Below, piece after piece: positions 1 through 57,135 of a stretch of 64,000 bases of DNA. Within the stretch, counting starts at the first letter, position 1; the number at the start of each line of letters is the position of its first letter. Made by a program: the position numbers and the translations under genes. Below the pieces are notes generated by a model. It did no database searches. It worked only from the letters and a program-made list of their open reading frames with translations, and had not been told where the DNA came from. Source of the DNA: a virus; IMG/VR virus record IMGVR_UViG_3300034121_001395; one strand, 5' to 3'.

Positions 1-396
1 GAGATTGCAATTGCGGATGGCGCACCAGTTGGTCCATCGCATGACGAAATTGTGCTGCACGCTGAGGAAGATTATCGATTTGCTCGTGAACGTATTAAAA
101 AACTTATAGACACGAGTGATGAGGCCATAAGTACAATGCATGCTCTTGCAAGTGATGCTGAACATCCACGCGCATTCGAAGTCCTTGCTGGCATGATAAA
201 AACTGCAGCTGATATAAATGGACAGTTATTAGGACTGCAAAAAGAACGCAAAAAAATTATACAGGTTGACGATAAACGAGGACAACCTGCTGCTCAAAGT
301 ACTACAAATAATGCTATATTTGTTGGCACCACTACAGAACTGCAAAAGTTGTTGAGAGGTGATGCTAATAGAGATGAACCTATTGATGTTGAATGA
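1..396 (+). CDS. gp16: Terminase small subunit (5'-truncated; frame open from base 1)
   Basis: HPRAFEVLAGMIK and TTNNAIFVGTTTELQKLL motifs of T4-like gp16; immediately precedes terL. Confidence 0.9.
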   Translation, partial: EIAIADGAPVGPSHDEIVLHAEEDYRFARERIKKLIDTSDEAISTMHALASDAEHPRAFEVLAGMIKTAADINGQLLGLQKERKKIIQVDDKRGQPAAQSTTNNAIFVGTTTELQKLLRGDANRDEPIDVE

Positions 397-1286
397 CTAC
401 TCCAGATTCGTATAATGGCAATCCATATATCAAGAGAGACGGTATTCAACAACAGTTTACCGCTCATGAAATATCTGAGTATAAAAAATGTATGGCGAGT
501 GTGTCATACTTTGCTGAACACTATGTAAAGGTTATAAATCTTGATCGTGGACTCGTAAATTTTAAGTTGCGCGGCTATCAAGAAAAGATGGTCGATCACT
601 TTACGCACAACAGATTTAGTATTGTACTTGCGTGTCGTCAAAGCGGAAAGTCTGTGACAAGTGTTGCATGGTTGTTACATTATGCAATATTTAACCCTGA
701 TAAGAAAATAGGTATACTAGCAAACAAAGGGGCGACTGCGCGTGAGATGTTGAGTCGTCTTACACTTATGCTTGAAAACTTACCATTTTTCTTGCAACCT
801 GGTTGCAAAATCCTAAATAAAGGAAACATAAAATTTAGTAATAACTCTGAAGTTATTGCTGCAGCAACAAGTGGTTCAAGTATTCGTGGCTTGTCAATGA
901 ATGTTATCTTCCTTGACGAGTTTGCGTTCGTGCATGGAGCAAACGAGTTTTATACGAGTACCTACCCAGTTATTTCTTCTGGTAAAGATACAAAGGTTAT
1001 AATAACGAGCACTCCTAATGGAGTTGGTAATATGTTTTATAAGCTTTGGGAGGGAGCAATACAGGGCACAAATGAGTTTCAATCATTTACAATTCGTTGG
1101 AATGATGTGCCAGGACGAGATGAGGAATGGAAACGTCAGACAATTGCAAACAGTAGTGAACTACAATTTACTCAGGAATTTGAATGTTTATCAGGTGATT
1201 CTGAAGTTGATGTTATTATAAATAACAAAAAAGTTAAAGTCAAACTTAAGAATTTATATGAAACATATCCTTTACAAAATAACTAG
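393..1286 (+). CDS. gp17: Terminase large subunit N-half (ATPase domain) fused to a 33-aa split-intein N-fragment (1185-1283)
   Basis: YNGNP start, RQSGKS Walker A, FLDEFAF Walker B, ITSTPNG motif; ends QEFE|CLSGDSEVDVII, an intein block A. Confidence 0.95.
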   Translation: MTTPDSYNGNPYIKRDGIQQQFTAHEISEYKKCMASVSYFAEHYVKVINLDRGLVNFKLRGYQEKMVDHFTHNRFSIVLACRQSGKSVTSVAWLLHYAIFNPDKKIGILANKGATAREMLSRLTLMLENLPFFLQPGCKILNKGNIKFSNNSEVIAAATSGSSIRGLSMNVIFLDEFAFVHGANEFYTSTYPVISSGKDTKVIITSTPNGVGNMFYKLWEGAIQGTNEFQSFTIRWNDVPGRDEEWKRQTIANSSELQFTQEFECLSGDSEVDVIINNKKVKVKLKNLYETYPLQNN

Positions 1287-1893
1287 AAGTGATGGTCAAA
1301 AATATATTGGTATCACTATTGATTATAGACTAAAAAATAGAATGTCCCAACATAAAATAAGTGATAAATTTAAAGGTTATGATTTTGAATATGAAATATT
1401 GCTAGAATCTGATGATAGATCTGTCATTGAAATAGCAGAAGAAAAAGCAATAGATGAATATGATACATTTAATAATGGATTAAATTCTACTAAAAGCGGA
1501 AAAGGGTATGGACACAATTCATCGTCATTTACTACATTTGGTTATAAATTCGACGATGAATCTAGACAGAAAATGTCTTTAGCAGCAAAGGGACGAGCTA
1601 AGCGTGAAGGATTTGAAATTAGATCTAATAGAAGTAAAAAATTTTATAATGATAATCCAGAAGTGCGAGAAAAAATATCAAAAAATAGACGTGGAAAAAA
1701 GGCGGCATTTAAATTAAATGATAATGATATTGCTCTACTAATAGAACAATATACTACGTTTGACCATCCAGATATTGGTAAAAAATCAAAAAATGGAAGA
1801 ATACTTACCAAACAAAGAGTTTTTTCCAATGTTATTGCTCGTTTTTTTAATGTCACTCCAGTTGCAATATATGGGTATGTAAAAGATTTGTAG
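1258..1893 (+). CDS. Free-standing GIY-YIG homing endonuclease between the terL halves
   Basis: ILYKIT...KYIGIT N-terminus, NGLNST motif, basic NUMOD-like tail; AT-rich; overlaps the end of IntN. Confidence 0.85.
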   Translation: MKHILYKITRSDGQKYIGITIDYRLKNRMSQHKISDKFKGYDFEYEILLESDDRSVIEIAEEKAIDEYDTFNNGLNSTKSGKGYGHNSSSFTTFGYKFDDESRQKMSLAAKGRAKREGFEIRSNRSKKFYNDNPEVREKISKNRRGKKAAFKLNDNDIALLIEQYTTFDHPDIGKKSKNGRILTKQRVFSNVIARFFNVTPVAIYGYVKDL

Positions 1894-1894
1894 T

Positions 1895-3013
1895 ATGCAA
1901 AACGTTTTAATTAAAAATGGTGATGGTGAATATGTTAAATTTGATGGTGTGCGAAAAACTGTACACGACAAATATATCAAATTAACACTATCTACAAATA
2001 AAATCATAAAATGTTCAGTTGATCATAGATTTGTCGTTAATGATAATATTATTTTCGCTAACAGATTAGAGATTGGAGACCATATAAACTCTAATAATAA
2101 AATTATTCATATTGAAATCGTTAACGAATCAATTGATTTATATGATCCCATTAATGTTAGCAATTCTCATACCTTTTATCATGATGACAATATCATTTCA
2201 CATAATTGTAATTTTATTGGCAGTAGTCAAACATTAATAGGTTCAGACACTCTATTGGGGCTGCAATCATATGATCCGTTGCAATTACAACATGGCATAC
2301 GCTATTATATTGAACCAATTGAAGGTCATGACTATATAATAACCGCAGATGTCAGTAAAGGACGCGGTCAAGATTACAGCACTTTTACAGTATTTGATAT
2401 ATCTGGAGTTGATGGTGTCTTTAAACAGGTGTGTACCTATAGAGATAATCTTGTGTCTCCACTTATGTTTCCAGAATTTATTGTTCGTGCCGCGAAAACA
2501 TACAATGATGCGCTTGTAATAGTTGAAAACAATGATGCTGGACAAGTTGTGTGTAATGCAATCTATTATGACTATGAATATGACAATACTTTTGTGCAAA
2601 GCTCAGTAAAAAGCAGTGGCATTGGGGTGACTATGACAAAACGTGTAAAACGTATTGGTTGTAGTAACTTAAAAGACCTGCTTGAGAGTGGTAAACTTCA
2701 ACTATGTGACGCAGACACAATAGTTGAACTCAGCAGTTTTGAACCAAAGGGAGACAGCTATGCAGCTCGTGGAAACACACATGACGATATGGTTATGAAT
2801 CTTGTACTCTTTGCTTGGTTTGTAAGTACAGATGCGTTTGGAGGACTCAGTAATATTGAACTAAAATCACTGCTCTATAGTGAAAAAATTAAAGAGATGG
2901 AAGAGGACTTGCCTCCATTTGGTATATTTGATACTCCACAAACATCACAAACTCCTAGCATGATTGACTATGAACGCCAAGTGTCATCGCTTCAAGAGTG
3001 GAATGCGCTGTAA
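1895..3013 (+). CDS. gp17: 104-aa split-intein C-fragment (1895-2206) fused to terminase large subunit C-half (nuclease domain)
   Basis: Block B CSVDH, block F LYDPINV, terminal SHN followed by CNFIGSSQTLI; nuclease motifs ADVSKGRGQDYS and HDDMVM. Confidence 0.95.
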   Translation: MQNVLIKNGDGEYVKFDGVRKTVHDKYIKLTLSTNKIIKCSVDHRFVVNDNIIFANRLEIGDHINSNNKIIHIEIVNESIDLYDPINVSNSHTFYHDDNIISHNCNFIGSSQTLIGSDTLLGLQSYDPLQLQHGIRYYIEPIEGHDYIITADVSKGRGQDYSTFTVFDISGVDGVFKQVCTYRDNLVSPLMFPEFIVRAAKTYNDALVIVENNDAGQVVCNAIYYDYEYDNTFVQSSVKSSGIGVTMTKRVKRIGCSNLKDLLESGKLQLCDADTIVELSSFEPKGDSYAARGNTHDDMVMNLVLFAWFVSTDAFGGLSNIELKSLLYSEKIKEMEEDLPPFGIFDTPQTSQTPSMIDYERQVSSLQEWNAL

Positions 3014-15442: not shown

Positions 15443-15892
15443 ATGATGCAACTTGAAGATATACTTAAATTATGGGAAACTGACAGCGTTATTGATGAGA
15501 TTAATTTAGATGAAACAAGTGTCAAAAGCGCGAGTCTCCATTCTAAATATCTAGAACTTTATAGCATTGCAAAGTTAAATCTCAAAAAGAAAGAGCTCTC
15601 TATGGCTCATTTACGCAAAGATAAGTGGTTGTACTATAATGGTAAGATGACTAAAGATGAAATGGATGCCAAAGGATGGCAATATGATCCATTCTCTGGT
15701 ATGAGCAAACCACTTAAAAGTGATATGGAGTTATTTTACACTACAGACTCTGATATTATGAAACTTCAAGGACAAATAGAATATCAATCTACAATTGTTG
15801 AAGCTCTTAAAGATATTATGGACAATATAAAGTGGAGACAGTCTACAATTAAAAATATTATAGATTGGAAGCGATTTACGTCAGGCGTTTGA
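15443..15892 (+). CDS. uvsY: Recombination mediator
   Basis: LHSKYL, KWLYYNGK, IKNIIDWKRF. Confidence 0.9.
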   Translation: MMQLEDILKLWETDSVIDEINLDETSVKSASLHSKYLELYSIAKLNLKKKELSMAHLRKDKWLYYNGKMTKDEMDAKGWQYDPFSGMSKPLKSDMELFYTTDSDIMKLQGQIEYQSTIVEALKDIMDNIKWRQSTIKNIIDWKRFTSGV

Positions 15893-16644
15893 TGACAAAC
15901 CTAGGCATAACTAAAGTTGACGAAACTTCATTGAGAATAGTCTCTAATGATTCTGGAATTCTTATGGAGCTTTCAGAACATTTTACTTTTTTTGCTGAAG
16001 GATATAAGTTTATGCCGCTGTATCGAAATAAGATGTGGGACGGCAAGGTGCGTCTCTATGATTCGCGTACTGGTCGCTTGCCATATGGACTGTTGTTTGA
16101 AGTGTTAAAGTTTGCAAACTCTCATGGTTATAGTTATGAATTGCATCCTAGCATAACTGAACGAGATGTACCAACATCACAGTCATTGTTAGATTATGCA
16201 AATAGTTTACATATTACAGGTGGTGAAACACGGATAACACCACGAGACTATCAACTTGAAGCATATGTACATGCTTGCACTGAAGGACGCAGTCTTGTAA
16301 TATCTCCTACAGGTTCTGGAAAAAGTTTAATTATCTACTTATGTGTTCGTTGGTTTTTAGAACATTATGACCAAAAGGTATTGATTGTAGTGCCTACAAC
16401 ATCACTCGTTCACCAAATGACAAAAGATTTTGAAGAGTATTCTAAATCTGATGATACATTTAATGTTGAAGATAGTGTATCTATGATAATGAGCGGATAT
16501 GATAAAAATCCCCAAAAAAATAAAATTAAATTGACTATGGAAGATGGATCAATACAGTCGTATTTTCCAAATGATATAGTAAATACTAGTAATAGAGGTA
16601 AAATTAAAGCTGGTGATTTAACTTTAAAAGATGACATAGTATAA
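15892..16644 (+). CDS. uvsW: UvsW helicase N-half with a C-terminal Hint-lobe-like tail (about 16519-16641)
   Basis: YRNKMWDGKVRL, PRDYQ, Walker A SPTGSGKS, IVVPTTSLV; then non-UvsW tail KIKLTMEDGS...KAGDLTLKDDIV. Confidence 0.92.
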   Translation: MTNLGITKVDETSLRIVSNDSGILMELSEHFTFFAEGYKFMPLYRNKMWDGKVRLYDSRTGRLPYGLLFEVLKFANSHGYSYELHPSITERDVPTSQSLLDYANSLHITGGETRITPRDYQLEAYVHACTEGRSLVISPTGSGKSLIIYLCVRWFLEHYDQKVLIVVPTTSLVHQMTKDFEEYSKSDDTFNVEDSVSMIMSGYDKNPQKNKIKLTMEDGSIQSYFPNDIVNTSNRGKIKAGDLTLKDDIV

Positions 16645-16672
16645 ATATACCTATAACAACCTTTGTAGGTAT
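16640..16672 (+). promoter_or_regulatory. Late promoter plus hairpin sequestering the HNH gene start codon
   Basis: TATAAATA at 16640-16647; ATACCTATAA (16647-16656) pairs with TTGTAGGTAT (16663-16672, one G-U), covering the AT of the ATG at 16671. Confidence 0.75.
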
Positions 16673-17501
16673 GAATTACTTTTTAAATGAACTTAATAAT
16701 CTTGCGATAAGCAATAAATATACAAAATGGTATAATGCCTTAATCAATCGCGCTATATCTAGGAATATATTAGATAATCCTATTGAAAACCACCATATAT
16801 TTCCAGTTTCGTTTAATCGTGATTGGAAAAATAAAAATGATAACAAAGTAGTTCTTACGATTCGGGAACATTTTATTTGTCATTTACTTTTAACAAAGAT
16901 GTTTTTTGGAGAAAATAGGTTAAAAATGGTTAGAGCGATGTTCTTTCTAAATCGCAGAAATAAATCTAAATCTTCAAGACAATATCTTGATTATAAATTG
17001 ATTTGGATAGATCATATGCAGAAAAATAATCCATTATTTGATGATAATACCAAACAGAAAATTAGTAAGGCTTTAAGTGGGAGAACTAAAGAAACTCATG
17101 ATTATATTAGAATCGCTAATATAAAAAAATCACAATATACTGCTGAGAATTCACAATGGCTACGAGATTCGCGAAATAAATTCAATGAAACTATTGCTAA
17201 GATGACAAAAGAAGAGCGGAAACAGAAATTTGGACATGAATGGTCTGATGAAGTTAGAAAAAAGTTTAGTTTAGAACGAACTGGTCAAACAAAGGAAAAT
17301 TCAGATCGTGTTCGCAAAATGTCGAAAACTAAAATAAAAAATAATTCCTTATTAAGCGCTGAAGAACGTAAAGCCAAACATTCTACTACTACAGGAATGA
17401 AATGGTATCATAATGATGAATTACGAATTTCAAAGTTAATGTTTCCTATTATAGATAATAATGAATGGGTGTTAGGCAGAAAAAAATATGAAAATATCTA
17501 A
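16671..17501 (+). CDS. Free-standing HNH homing endonuclease (MobE-like) between the uvsW halves
   Basis: ENHHIFP...VLTIREHFICHLLLTKM; C-terminal KWYHN...WVLGR. Confidence 0.85.
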   Translation: MNYFLNELNNLAISNKYTKWYNALINRAISRNILDNPIENHHIFPVSFNRDWKNKNDNKVVLTIREHFICHLLLTKMFFGENRLKMVRAMFFLNRRNKSKSSRQYLDYKLIWIDHMQKNNPLFDDNTKQKISKALSGRTKETHDYIRIANIKKSQYTAENSQWLRDSRNKFNETIAKMTKEERKQKFGHEWSDEVRKKFSLERTGQTKENSDRVRKMSKTKIKNNSLLSAEERKAKHSTTTGMKWYHNDELRISKLMFPIIDNNEWVLGRKKYENI

Positions 17502-18399
17502 AATTGATATCATTGAAACTCCATCGCCTGTTATTATTACTACATGGCAAAGCGCAATCACATTACAAAAATCATGGTTTCAAAGCTATGGTATGGTTAT
17601 AGGAGATGAAGCTCATCTCTTCAAAGCAAAAAGTTTAAATACGATTATGTCTGCATGTGTTAATGCATGTTATCGCATAGGCACTACTGGCACTCTTGAT
17701 GGCAGTCTTTGTAATGAACGAGTGCTTGTTGGTAATTTTGGTCCAACACATCGAGTAATTACAACAAAAGAGCTTATTGATAACGATACTCTTGCTGCAT
17801 TAAAAATTAAATGTATTGTATGCAACCACAGTGATGAACTTAAAAAGGTAATCTCTAAAGCAGACTATCAAACTGAGATAGATGCAATTGTGACTCATGC
17901 TGGTCGAAACTCTTTTATAGCAAACCTTGCGCTCGATCAAAAGGGCAATACACTCGTACTCTTTAATCTAGTTCAGAAACATGGCAAACCTCTTTTTGAA
18001 CTTATAAGTAGTATTAATAGTGATTCTAATAGACATATATTCTATGTGTCTGGAGAAGTAGACGCAACAAACCGAGAACACATACGTGAATTAACTGAAA
18101 CACAAAACAATGCAATTATTGTGGCGAGTGTTGGTACGTTTAGTACAGGAATCAATATCAAAAATCTGCACCAGATTATATTTGCTGCGCCAACAAAGAG
18201 TCAAATACGTGTATTGCAAAGCATTGGTCGAGGACTACGAAAATCTGATGATGGTCGACCAACAACAGTCTATGACATATCAGACAACTTCTCATGGAAA
18301 AAGAAAAAGAATTATACGCTGCAACACGCAATAGAGCGTACCAAAATGTATGCAAAGGAAGGGTTTAACTATAAACTATATGAAATACCACTGCAATGA
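17488..18399 (+). CDS. uvsW: UvsW helicase C-half with an IntC-like first strand (MKISKIDIIE)
   Basis: VIITTWQS, Walker B GDEAH, GTTGTL, FSTGINIKNL, LQSIGRGLR. Confidence 0.92.
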   Translation: MKISKIDIIETPSPVIITTWQSAITLQKSWFQSYGMVIGDEAHLFKAKSLNTIMSACVNACYRIGTTGTLDGSLCNERVLVGNFGPTHRVITTKELIDNDTLAALKIKCIVCNHSDELKKVISKADYQTEIDAIVTHAGRNSFIANLALDQKGNTLVLFNLVQKHGKPLFELISSINSDSNRHIFYVSGEVDATNREHIRELTETQNNAIIVASVGTFSTGINIKNLHQIIFAAPTKSQIRVLQSIGRGLRKSDDGRPTTVYDISDNFSWKKKKNYTLQHAIERTKMYAKEGFNYKLYEIPLQ

Positions 18400-18857
18400 T
18401 TGATGGCTTATATTCAAAAGTAAAAGATCTTGACATACGGGTCTTTACATTGTCGAGTGGTAAAGTCCTTATAGGAGAAGTTGTGCATGCCTATGAAGAT
18501 GGCATACAGTTAAATTATCCACTAGAAATAAGAAAAGCACTTGTAAAGTCTGGAGTCTATACCCAAGTAATGCTACCACTTGTGGCTGGCAATGACAGCG
18601 AAAATTGTATTGTCTATGATCGTAGTATTGAAACAGAATCTGATACATCTGATGAGGTTAAACGTAAATATACAGAAGCACTTATATATCAGAGACTACT
18701 TCATTTGATATCCAATTCTTCTAAAGAAACAGATGAGAATGAATTGGATGAATCAGAAGATTTAAATTATCCCATTCCTGAAATTGATCCACCAGAAGAA
18801 TCACAGTCTGACGAAGAATTATGGAATATTTTCTTAGATCGTTGGAAGAATGTATGA
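18396..18857 (+). CDS. Hypothetical protein (possible Sm-like fold), typical position before gp55
   Basis: FTLSSGKVLIGEV N-terminus; synteny only. Confidence 0.5.
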   Translation: MIDGLYSKVKDLDIRVFTLSSGKVLIGEVVHAYEDGIQLNYPLEIRKALVKSGVYTQVMLPLVAGNDSENCIVYDRSIETESDTSDEVKRKYTEALIYQRLLHLISNSSKETDENELDESEDLNYPIPEIDPPEESQSDEELWNIFLDRWKNV

Positions 18858-55454: not shown

Positions 55455-55757
55455 ATGCCGAGCGAAATATCTGACTATATATTTGTAGATGACCCTGCAA
55501 ATGACAAAGTGTATGCAATACGACTTGTTAGTGGGCCGTATGTAGATACCATCTATAAGTATGCAAATATAAAAATAAATGAAGACACAGAAAAAGAAAT
55601 GTGTACATTATCGTATGCGTATAATATAATGTCTACTCCAACTGGATGCGATAAAGAAACATTGCATTCTGATGCAGATTTTAAAAACTATATCGGAGAC
55701 GTATTATCTGATATACTTTCAAACCAAGAATATAAAATAGGAAACCATGGAGAATAA
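55455..55757 (+). CDS. Hypothetical protein in the T4 gp40 position
   Basis: Lies before gp41; FKNYIGDVL motif. Confidence 0.5.
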   Translation: MPSEISDYIFVDDPANDKVYAIRLVSGPYVDTIYKYANIKINEDTEKEMCTLSYAYNIMSTPTGCDKETLHSDADFKNYIGDVLSDILSNQEYKIGNHGE

Positions 55758-57135
55758 TCTTCAAGACATCATAATTAAAAATCTAGTCAATAACGAAGCA
55801 TTTTGTCGTAAAACCCTACCACACCTAAAACCAGAATATTTTGAAGGACATCATAAGGCGATATATGGTCTTATATTGCAGTTTATAACAAAGTATAATA
55901 AACTCCCAAATTCATCATCGTTAGCAATTGAATTTCAACAGTCCGAACATACTCGTCGTACAGACGCAGGCGCAATTGCACAATCAATCTCAACGTTAAA
56001 TGAAAATTTTTCAGTTGAGCATGAATGGTTACTTGTTCAAACTGAAAAGTGGTGTAAAGATCGAGCAGTTCATCTTGCTATTATTGAAGCAGTTTCTATT
56101 ATTGATGGCAAGTCTCCTGACAAAGCAGAAGGAGCAATTCCAAGTATACTTAGTAAGGCGCTAAGCGTAACATTTGATACAAACGTTGGGCATGATTATC
56201 TTGAAAACGTAGATGGTCGCTATGAGTTTTATCACAAGACAGAAGATAAAATTCCCTTTGACTTGGATATGTTTAATACAATTACTGGCGGAGGCATTCC
56301 ACGTAAGACGCTAAACATTATTCTCGCTGGTACAGGTTGCGGCAAGAGTTTAGGAATGTGTCATATGGCTGCTGCTGCTCTTGCCCAAGGGCGAAATGTC
56401 TTGTATATTACTCTTGAAATGGCAGAAGAGCGTATTGCAGAACGTATCGATGCTAATTTGCTTGATATACGAATTGATAAAATCAAAGACCTGTCTCAAC
56501 GCGAATTTTATTCTCGCGTAGAGGACATCTCTAAACGCACTCATGGAAAACTTATTGTGAAGGAATATCCAACTGCAGCGGCACATGTTGGTCACTTTAG
56601 AGCACTGCTGCTCGAATTAAAACTTAAAAAGAAGTTTGAACCCGATATCATATATGTAGATTATCTTAATATTTGTGCGTCTTCACGTGTTAAAGGATTA
56701 AGTGGTAGCATCAACACCTATAGTTTTATCAAAAGTATTGCTGAGGAGCTTCGTGGTCTTGCTGTAGAGTTTAATGTCCCAATCTGGAGTGCCACTCAGG
56801 TGACTCGCGGAGGATTTAATAATTCAGATGTTGAAATTACTGACACCTCTGAATCTTTTGGCTTGCCTGCTACCGCTGACCTCATGATTGCATTTATTCG
56901 AACTGAACAACTTGACAAAATGAATCAGATTATGGTTAAGCAACTCAAGAATCGTTATAATGATCCAACAAGCAATAAACGATTTACTATTGGAATTGAT
57001 CTTTCCAAGATGAGACTATATGATATTTCAGATCCTATGGCAAATATTACCAATGATGGTGATAGTTCTCCAGTAGTAAGCACTCCATTTAATAGTCAAC
57101 GAAAAAATAGAGATTATAGTGACATAAAGGTGTAA
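55747..57135 (+). CDS. gp41: Replicative DNA helicase
   Basis: AGTGCGKS, ITLEMAEE, VKEYPT, VDYLNI, SESFGLPATAD, KQLKNRY. Confidence 0.97.
   Translation: MENNLQDIIIKNLVNNEAFCRKTLPHLKPEYFEGHHKAIYGLILQFITKYNKLPNSSSLAIEFQQSEHTRRTDAGAIAQSISTLNENFSVEHEWLLVQTEKWCKDRAVHLAIIEAVSIIDGKSPDKAEGAIPSILSKALSVTFDTNVGHDYLENVDGRYEFYHKTEDKIPFDLDMFNTITGGGIPRKTLNIILAGTGCGKSLGMCHMAAAALAQGRNVLYITLEMAEERIAERIDANLLDIRIDKIKDLSQREFYSRVEDISKRTHGKLIVKEYPTAAAHVGHFRALLLELKLKKKFEPDIIYVDYLNICASSRVKGLSGSINTYSFIKSIAEELRGLAVEFNVPIWSATQVTRGGFNNSDVEITDTSESFGLPATADLMIAFIRTEQLDKMNQIMVKQLKNRYNDPTSNKRFTIGIDLSKMRLYDISDPMANITNDGDSSPVVSTPFNSQRKNRDYSDIKV

Follow-up and report, generated by a model that had tools for sequence, protein, structure and literature searches.

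In Aeromonas phage Aeh1, the ribonucleotide reductase (RNR) gene nrdA is reportedly a gene in pieces, interrupted by an insertion of the endonuclease gene mobE (work attributed to Friedrich and colleagues, 2007). This report concerns another phage gene, uvsW, which encodes an SF2 helicase of T4-like phages, in a 64,000-nucleotide stretch of DNA from a lake phage (IMG/VR virus record IMGVR_UViG_3300034121_001395; one strand, 5' to 3'), which will be called the window. Here uvsW is present as two open reading frames (ORFs), cut between Walker A and Walker B with a free-standing HNH ORF in the gap, and each half carries an additional peptide at the end facing the break: a tail on the N-half and a head on the C-half. 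Profile comparisons identify the two peptides as parts of a split intein that have lost everything needed for splicing. They probably serve to hold the two UvsW chains together.

Two kinds of described system are relevant. The split NrdA of Aeh1 cannot function without its tails, which derive from the mobE insertion; these tails gave no database matches, and it was speculated that they and mobE are remnants of a degenerate split intein interacting electrostatically (Crona 2010, PMC3045599). The second kind is a set of fractured genes with complete split inteins and free-standing endonucleases (gp41-1, NrdJ-1 and IMPDH-1), in which uvsW is not included (Dassa 2009, PMC2677866). The N- and C-terminal fragments of split inteins (IntN and IntC) first associate via a disordered part of IntN and IntC (review PMC11766414, citing Shah 2013).

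The uvsW locus and its inserted cassette

The features of the locus are the following (window coordinates):

15892..16644, + strand: uvsW N-half including its C-terminal tail, 250 residues; UvsW_N domain, Walker A (SPTGSGKS) and the first part of RecA-like domain 1
16380..16506, + strand: donor-type uvsW exon stretch, a co-conversion tract moving with the cassette, defined from DNA identity profiles against L004 and L002
16507..16641, + strand: N-half tail, 45 residues, NPQKN KIKLTMEDGSIQSYFPNDIVNTSNRGKIKAGDLTLKDDIV (NPQKN...KDDIV), missing in intact relatives; corresponds to the C-terminal half of a split-intein N-fragment, with no block A
16640..16673, + strand: T4-late-promoter-like TATAAATA and an 11-bp hairpin over the Shine-Dalgarno sequence and AUG of the HNH gene, from motif location and a predicted fold of -12.5 kcal/mol (z = -2.9)
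16671..17501, + strand: free-standing HNH homing-endonuclease gene, 276 residues (phrog_655, 2.6e-30)
17488..17529, + strand: C-half head, 14 residues, MKISKIDIIETPSP, missing in intact relatives; corresponds to the first beta-strand of a split-intein C-fragment, with no blocks F and G
17488..18399, + strand: uvsW C-half including the head, 303 residues; rest of RecA-like domain 1, Walker B (GDEAH) and RecA-like domain 2

The N-half matches UvsW_N in Pfam (2.1e-17) together with ResIII and DEAD, and the C-half matches phrog_9690 (1.6e-91) and Pfam Helicase_C. An intact relative (L004) matches T4 UvsW (2oca_A) with 4.9e-93. The features that define UvsW (UvsW_N and two RecA-like domains with motifs I and II) are all found, with the motifs spread over two chains. 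Alignment to 2oca_A puts the break between motifs I and II, in the loop that precedes the GTWQT strand of RecA-like domain 1. The last 14 nucleotides of the HNH gene, its stop included, are also the first of the C-half. Relatives have a single uvsW gene where the window has two ORFs with an endonuclease ORF in between, as expected of a gene in pieces. A preliminary description, made from the sequence without database searches, had given this same layout, and its ORFs and its HNH assignment are confirmed.

Between the window and a second split lineage (L006), the ratio of nonsynonymous to synonymous substitution rates (dN/dS) is 0.067 for the N-half and 0.036 for the C-half. Values this low between two split lineages indicate that the split gene is in use and that both halves are under strong purifying selection.

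Intact uvsW, a single gene of about 500 residues, occurs in the IMG/VR relatives L004, L005, L007 and others (97-99% identical to the window C-half), where the sequence at the break is ...SGKEKHNIESRVIITTWQS... In the window, a six-residue loop is replaced: 45 residues are added after SGYDK and 14 before VIITTWQS. Since near-identical relatives with an intact gene lack these 45 and 14 residues, the comparison assigns both peptides to the inserted cassette. In none of these intact genes is the segment present as an ordinary domain. The preliminary description was right that both halves carry an extra peptide facing the break, which it put at about 41 and 10 residues. The chance of a 45-codon stop-free read-through is approximately 0.012 in the AT-rich DNA of the cassette.

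DNA identity profiles place the limits of the mobile unit further out. Against intact L004, identity is 92-100% up to about 16370, then declines through 80, 68 and 57 to 45% and is back to 98% at about 17530; from VIITTWQS on, the C-half is 99% identical to that of L004. Against the split phage L002, identity is 98-100% over 16312-17510 and 88-94% in the flanks. Three N-halves (P0001-P0003) that are widely diverged elsewhere share the last 45 or so exon residues and the tail at 100%, and the HNH gene is 100% identical across L001-L003. These identity steps and the shared tail and exon point to the recent spread, across diverged backgrounds, of a unit of about 1.15 kb made up of donor exon, tail, HNH gene and head. 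The one-sided co-conversion is that expected for a free-standing homing endonuclease. The stretch is also present in lake and freshwater metagenome runs from 14 studies besides the two possible source samples; in those contigs the differences concentrate outside 16380-17530.

Intein derivation and recurrence of the two peptides

A forward profile made from the uvsW tails alone (A1) was scored against 1.84 billion representative proteins. It matched 93 proteins at E <= 1e-3. Most of these are split-intein N-fragments, covered from block B to the split point and matched with E-values down to 1e-7 to 1e-9. Where the tails read FPND or TQSQ, about 70 of the 87 full-length matches show TxxH; a Cys1-led block A lies 55-90 residues upstream in at least 49, and in 62 the match ends no more than 15 residues from the protein C-terminus. 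Pfam identifies Intein_splicing or Hint on the matches that were sampled (P0008, P0010 and P0085).

For the reciprocal search, a hidden Markov model (HMM) of 96 positions was made from 49 true IntN pieces, with E-values at Z = 1e6. It matches the window N-half with E 2.4e-7, without gaps, over positions 50-93 or thereabouts (kelieleLedGsilkcTpdHkvltknrgyveakdLteeDdil in the model, KNKIKLTMEDGSIQSYFPNDIVNTSNRGKIKAGDLTLKDDIV in the window). Other uvsW N-halves are also matched (L006, 2.1e-10; L159, 8e-7; L161, 4e-6; P0070, 6e-6; P0018, 6e-5; L162, 0.015), while there is no match on intact uvsW or on C-halves. The true inteins in this model were picked via the forward search and the two directions are therefore not fully independent; the forward E-values rest on the whole protein library.

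Structural comparison leads to the same group of proteins. The AlphaFold2 model of the tail has four strands and a predicted local distance difference test score (pLDDT) of 86; as the underlying alignment contains intein rows, the model reflects homology. Its top Foldseek matches are almost all inteins, with root-mean-square deviations (rmsd) of 1.1-1.8 A over 37-41 residues. The NrdJ-1 split intein (8ubs_A) is first (probability 0.98, rmsd 1.8 A over 38 columns), although all Foldseek E-values are 0.18 or above and none is <= 0.001. The same protein is the best PDB sequence match of the tail profile (residues 80-104, from block B to the split point), at an E-value (0.66) that is not significant.

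Other searches give little. Neither tail nor head, nor a concatenation of the two, has a Hint match in Pfam, single-sequence PDB searches with the tails return chance matches only, and word-indexed protein searches with the tail regions return only near-identical proteins. Atlas feature searches score 0.81-0.82 and provide leads only. The preliminary description had proposed that the peptides resemble inteins on the basis of an alignment by eye to the intein in the terminase large subunit (TerL) of this phage. That alignment does not stand: its pairwise score of 27-28 is no better than the shuffle mean of 26-28 (p ~0.4). The proposed derivation itself does stand, on the tail-only profile, the reciprocal HMM and the position of the head; among Hint and intein models, it is the intein HMM that detects it and not Pfam. 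Taking forward profile, reciprocal HMM, head position and fold together, Hint homology is found at both termini that face the break, and we regard the homology of the tail to inteins as established by these comparisons.

For the head, a nine-residue scoring matrix made from three uvsW heads was slid along the six contiguous mini-inteins among the matches. In all six, the best or second-best position of the whole protein (248-1547 positions) lies 7-16 residues past the tail match and directly precedes block F (VYD...), which would happen by chance with a probability of roughly 4e-8. In a true split intein of a UvrD-like helicase (L168) the C-fragment begins ...VKLKKITKKPKTRVYDIEV..., so that VKLKKITKKPK can be compared with the L006 head MKIKKITKVEK. 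The pattern MKI.KI is conserved in L006, L159 and L164. By its position and pattern, the head corresponds to the first IntC strand.

What is missing from the peptides is equally consistent (a slash marks a junction). There is no residue-1 nucleophile or block A: the exon runs into the tail as SGYDK/NPQKNKIKL, and nothing in it corresponds to HMM positions 1-49. The block B histidine is also missing, with FPND in the window in place of the TxxH (TPDH or TPNH) of true inteins and TQSQ, TANT, PGSQ, KSNQ, KADD or QPND in the other uvsW tails. On the C-terminal side there are no blocks F and G, no terminal (H)N and no +1 Cys/Ser/Thr, as the 14-residue head runs directly into VIITTWQS. In alignment A4, all eight uvsW tails lack the first half of IntN, with residue 1 and block A, and have the block B histidine replaced. 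Because block A, the block B histidine, blocks F and G and the junction nucleophiles are absent, canonical protein splicing of the uvsW halves is excluded on sequence grounds. The preliminary description had read these positions correctly and had likewise expected no splicing.

The arrangement is not confined to the window. Eight uvsW variants carry tails, and at least three unrelated ORFs are found between tail and head. In L006 (with P0004), uvsW is split at the same site by a 249-residue ORF that has no similarity to the HNH gene by BLASTP and no Pfam or PHROG match; judged by eye, its N-terminus may be GIY-YIG-like. The L006 tail aligns with that of the window without gaps (score 47 against 21.6 +/- 4.1 for shuffles, p = 0.0005) and its head, MKIKKITKVEKDPR, is similar to the window head (p = 0.005). 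L159 has the head MKIKKIDVIDPR. Its middle ORF (1862-2617) is 46% identical to residues 149-275 of the window HNH protein (9e-29, some 130 C-terminal residues) and the N-terminal parts are unrelated, which suggests that nuclease domains have been shuffled onto a common, presumed DNA-binding, C-terminal region. L161 and L162 have HNH genes of phrog_655 between tail and head, and P0018 and P0070 are further uvsW N-half fragments carrying tails.

The search for the same peptide pair in other fractured genes that the preliminary description had in mind yields one RNR (L164, 2335-5105, metagenomic). Its large subunit is in at least three pieces and is interrupted, in order, by an atypically split intein, a contiguous mini-intein and a non-catalytic tail/head pair. 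The tail, DFEIELDDGTVVKLPGQHKVLLKDGSMKKVRELTEDDDIENLLV, ends an ORF after the complete mini-intein (...VHN/CEILLPTKPFNSLDDEG) and is matched by the intein HMM at 2.4e-9. The next ORF, 11 nucleotides on and with no endonuclease in between, begins MKIVKKTCVRDVP/KIALCTLGS. The break lies between the NLCxEI and ALCTL motifs, which is the mobE split site in nrdA of phage Aeh1. Most of the 67 HNH-gene relatives whose flanks were inspected lie between genes, and none of these flanks contains a tail pair. P0048 (1013 residues), with a non-catalytic tail-like C-terminus, was rejected as a further case because neither an endonuclease nor a C-half follows it.

Phylogenetic analysis of 35 sequences, tails as well as IntN pieces (41 columns), gives an unresolved tree in which the window tail groups with true inteins of the NRG type (98* set). 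Monophyly of the uvsW tails is not rejected (approximately unbiased test, p-AU 0.54), and the tree does not decide between one and several origins.

Other intein-related sequences were seen. P0009 (293 residues, with an N-terminus like that of a lipoprotein) has two tail-like modules in tandem; both lack catalytic residues and both are followed by a strand. It may represent the same Hint sub-structure used within one chain. At 393-3013 of the window, the TerL gene is fractured by a 211-residue GIY-YIG-like ORF. Its intein is complete and atypically split, with Cys1 present (a 33-residue IntN, CLSGDSEV..., and a 104-residue IntC, ...SVDH...SHN/C), and its IntC matches the engineered consensus atypical intein CatC (6dsl_B) at 3.7e-10; an IMG/VR search for its relatives returned extein matches only. 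The gp41 helicase gene is intact in the window (55747-57135). In a closely related IMG/VR phage of 173,760 bp (L170, G002:C1:51963-55088), it is broken at Walker A by an intein with an atypical split (ILAG/CVHPDTQV... and ...SSHN/TGCGKS) with an HNH ORF on the opposite strand. Finally, P0085, P0042, P0056, P0064 and P0097 are uvsW N-halves with complete split-intein N-fragments at DEC/H in motif II. These sequences indicate that two kinds of element have entered uvsW, each at its own site.

A possible non-covalent clasp and the alternatives

The reading that we prefer, with a probability of about 0.6, is that of a homed cassette whose catalytically dead split-intein remnants pair as a non-covalent tether for a two-chain UvsW. 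A mobile cassette of some 1.15 kb (window ~16380-17530) has homed into a surface loop that precedes the VIITTWQS strand in RecA-like domain 1. It brings, in this order, donor exon, 45 tail codons, a stop inside the promoter-like motif, a hairpin over the endonuclease start, the HNH gene and an overlapping ATG with 14 codons. The peptides are the remains of a split intein on both sides of its endonuclease: the C-terminal half of IntN, from the strand before block B, and the first IntC strand. With the catalytic parts lost, no peptide bond is made, as the sequence shows. Tail and head would pair as split-intein fragments do on first association, tethering two parts of the RecA-like domain, so that the two-chain UvsW could fold and work and the insertion would be nearly neutral for the phage. 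The origin was probably by one of two routes: either the endonuclease gene moved away from a split-intein locus together with the sequences directly beside it, or a split intein decayed in place. Both fit because only the intein parts that adjoin the endonuclease survive.

The suggestion that the pair acts as a clasp draws on a weak complex prediction, on retention across diverged variants and on analogy. For the tail (48 residues) and the head with 16 exon residues (30 residues), the predicted complex scores 0.32 and the best of three controls 0.02; the runs agree in at least 89% of contacts and the pLDDT of the partners is at least 53. Of 80 solved complexes, 58 reach the mark for this score, as do 2 of 110 mismatched pairs, and at <=0.60 there are only 7 of the 80 together with both passing mismatches. 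The tail/head contact envisaged in the preliminary description is thus predicted well above the controls but within the weak band. As for retention, the tails are only 20-35% identical to each other and all keep an open frame, although stop-free runs of 45-55 codons have p ~0.005-0.012 in this DNA. They also keep the structural positions of the intein profile, and the head is constant across different intervening ORFs.

Several observations weigh against a clasp. The complex prediction, apart from its low score, may reflect memory of solved split inteins. Pairwise dN/dS for the tail is 0.78-0.90, with dS saturated and the value therefore uninformative. The window tail and head are both net neutral, unlike the anionic and cationic fragments of typical split inteins (the L006 pair is -4/+3). 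In Aeh1, the tails are dispensable for the heterodimer and required only for a higher-order dimer (PMC3045599); the analogy is therefore no guarantee of a clasp role. The halves of one RecA-like domain might also assemble unaided.

The most serious alternative takes up this last point. The peptides could be neutral relics, decayed or dragged in, that are merely tolerated while the UvsW halves assemble through the RecA-domain interface alone. The tail dN/dS (with the reservation about saturation), the behaviour of Aeh1, the weak complex score and the lack in the window tail of the DDKWL extension present in most other variants would all agree with this. It is harder to reconcile with eight diverged tails that all remain in open frame, with the match of the uvsW tails to the intein HMM at structural positions while catalytic positions are lost, and with a head (MKI.KI) that is kept across three types of intervening gene and in RNR. 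We consider it unlikely, at roughly one chance in four. A more remote explanation is that the peptides serve the endonuclease (as late promoter, for translational coupling or for disruption of the target site) and that their protein sequence is incidental. The DNA at the 3' end of the tail coding region does carry putative signals of this kind: TATAAATA (16640-16647) overlaps the N-half stop codon and the hairpin (16646-16673) covers the Shine-Dalgarno sequence and AUG of the HNH gene. T4 I-TevI and Aeh1 mobE have the same arrangement of promoter and hairpin and, by analogy with them, a late transcript starting within the 5' arm of the hairpin would free the HNH start codon. The C-half ATG, moreover, overlaps the last codons of the HNH ORF and, in L006, of an unrelated ORF. 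Conservation is, however, seen in the protein sequence, where 43 residues follow the intein profile, and the L164 pair has no endonuclease, only 11 nucleotides between its ORFs. This explanation therefore appears improbable.

Restoration of a single product, or loss of the gene, is less probable still. Group I introns with endonuclease ORFs occur in T4-like phages, and the interruption might be removed as RNA in the same way, or uvsW might simply be inactivated. Rfam, however, matches no family and hence no group I intron in 15800-18500, even at E <= 10, and the stop of the N-half and the ATG of the C-half are both conserved in relatives. In an RNA library, one 191-nucleotide contig covers the 3' end of the HNH gene and continues without interruption into the C-half exon; this is a weak argument, as DNA can occur in such libraries and the contig says nothing about the rest of the region. 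The low dN/dS of the exons between split lineages argues against pseudogenes. Both variants seem very improbable. Covalent joining by a non-canonical protein trans-splicing, which the intein derivation of the peptides could bring to mind, is hardly credible given the lack of a residue-1 nucleophile, HMM positions 1-49, the block B histidine, blocks F and G, a terminal Asn and a +1 Cys/Ser/Thr context.

The preferred reading, that of a homed cassette with a non-covalent tether, can be extended more tentatively. Cassettes of tail, endonuclease and head could form a distinct and widespread class of mobile element in phages, in which a non-catalytic split-intein half is a built-in protein 'splint'; we would put this at somewhat less than an even chance. 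If true, the splint would allow invasion of coding sequence at sites open to neither an intron nor a splicing intein. It would be a third way, beside RNA and protein splicing, of neutralising a gene interruption, and would explain both the uvsW family and the L164 RNR pair at the Aeh1 nrdA split site.

Comparison with known systems

The preliminary description had stated that no catalytically stripped split-intein adaptor was known. This was too strong in view of the speculation concerning the Aeh1 tails (PMC3045599), and in our literature search we found no paper documenting a degenerate split-intein remnant as the tail of a fractured gene. The present results are the first sequence-level support that we have found for the idea that tails on endonuclease-fractured genes can be degenerate split inteins. 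They identify the surviving parts as the two pieces flanking the endonuclease, and the arrangement recurs (eight uvsW variants, at least three kinds of intervening ORF and one RNR). This bears on the origin and decay of split inteins. If the clasp is real, it would explain how free-standing endonucleases colonise the middle of domains in essential enzymes, and the peptides would constitute a small natural non-splicing heterodimerisation pair for protein engineering.

The Aeh1 NrdA, whose tails are the nearest precedent, resembles the uvsW locus in that an essential gene of DNA metabolism is split within a domain by a free-standing HNH endonuclease, without splicing, and in that unique AT-rich tails are fused to both new termini. 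It differs in the kind of knowledge available: tail function has been tested in Aeh1, while in uvsW the tails are identified as Hint-derived from sequence. The Aeh1 tails (L165) do not match the intein or tail HMMs and we have therefore not placed them in the same sequence family. The TerL split intein of the same phage (Cat/GOS-TerL type) shares with uvsW the layout of the fractured gene and the Hint fold. Unlike the uvsW peptides, it is complete, and its pairwise similarity to them is not significant.

The loci of the type described by Dassa and colleagues have the same order (N-half with intein piece, endonuclease gene, intein piece with C-half) and the same phage or metagenomic origin; the uvsW tail is homologous to their IntN, with NrdJ-1 as best PDB match. 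The complete split inteins at motif II of uvsW (P0085) belong to this group as well. Compared with these split inteins, the split uvsW of the window keeps some 43 of the roughly 96 IntN positions and some 10 residues of IntC, trans-splicing is not possible, and the insertion is in a loop rather than in a conserved catalytic motif. As for the steps of fragment association (Shah 2013, as reviewed in PMC11766414), the 'collapse' onto the N-terminal half of IntN would be impossible in uvsW, where this half is absent, and the window pair is not oppositely charged. The parts that uvsW has kept are those that flank the split point and that, in the 'capture' step of split inteins, make the first contact.

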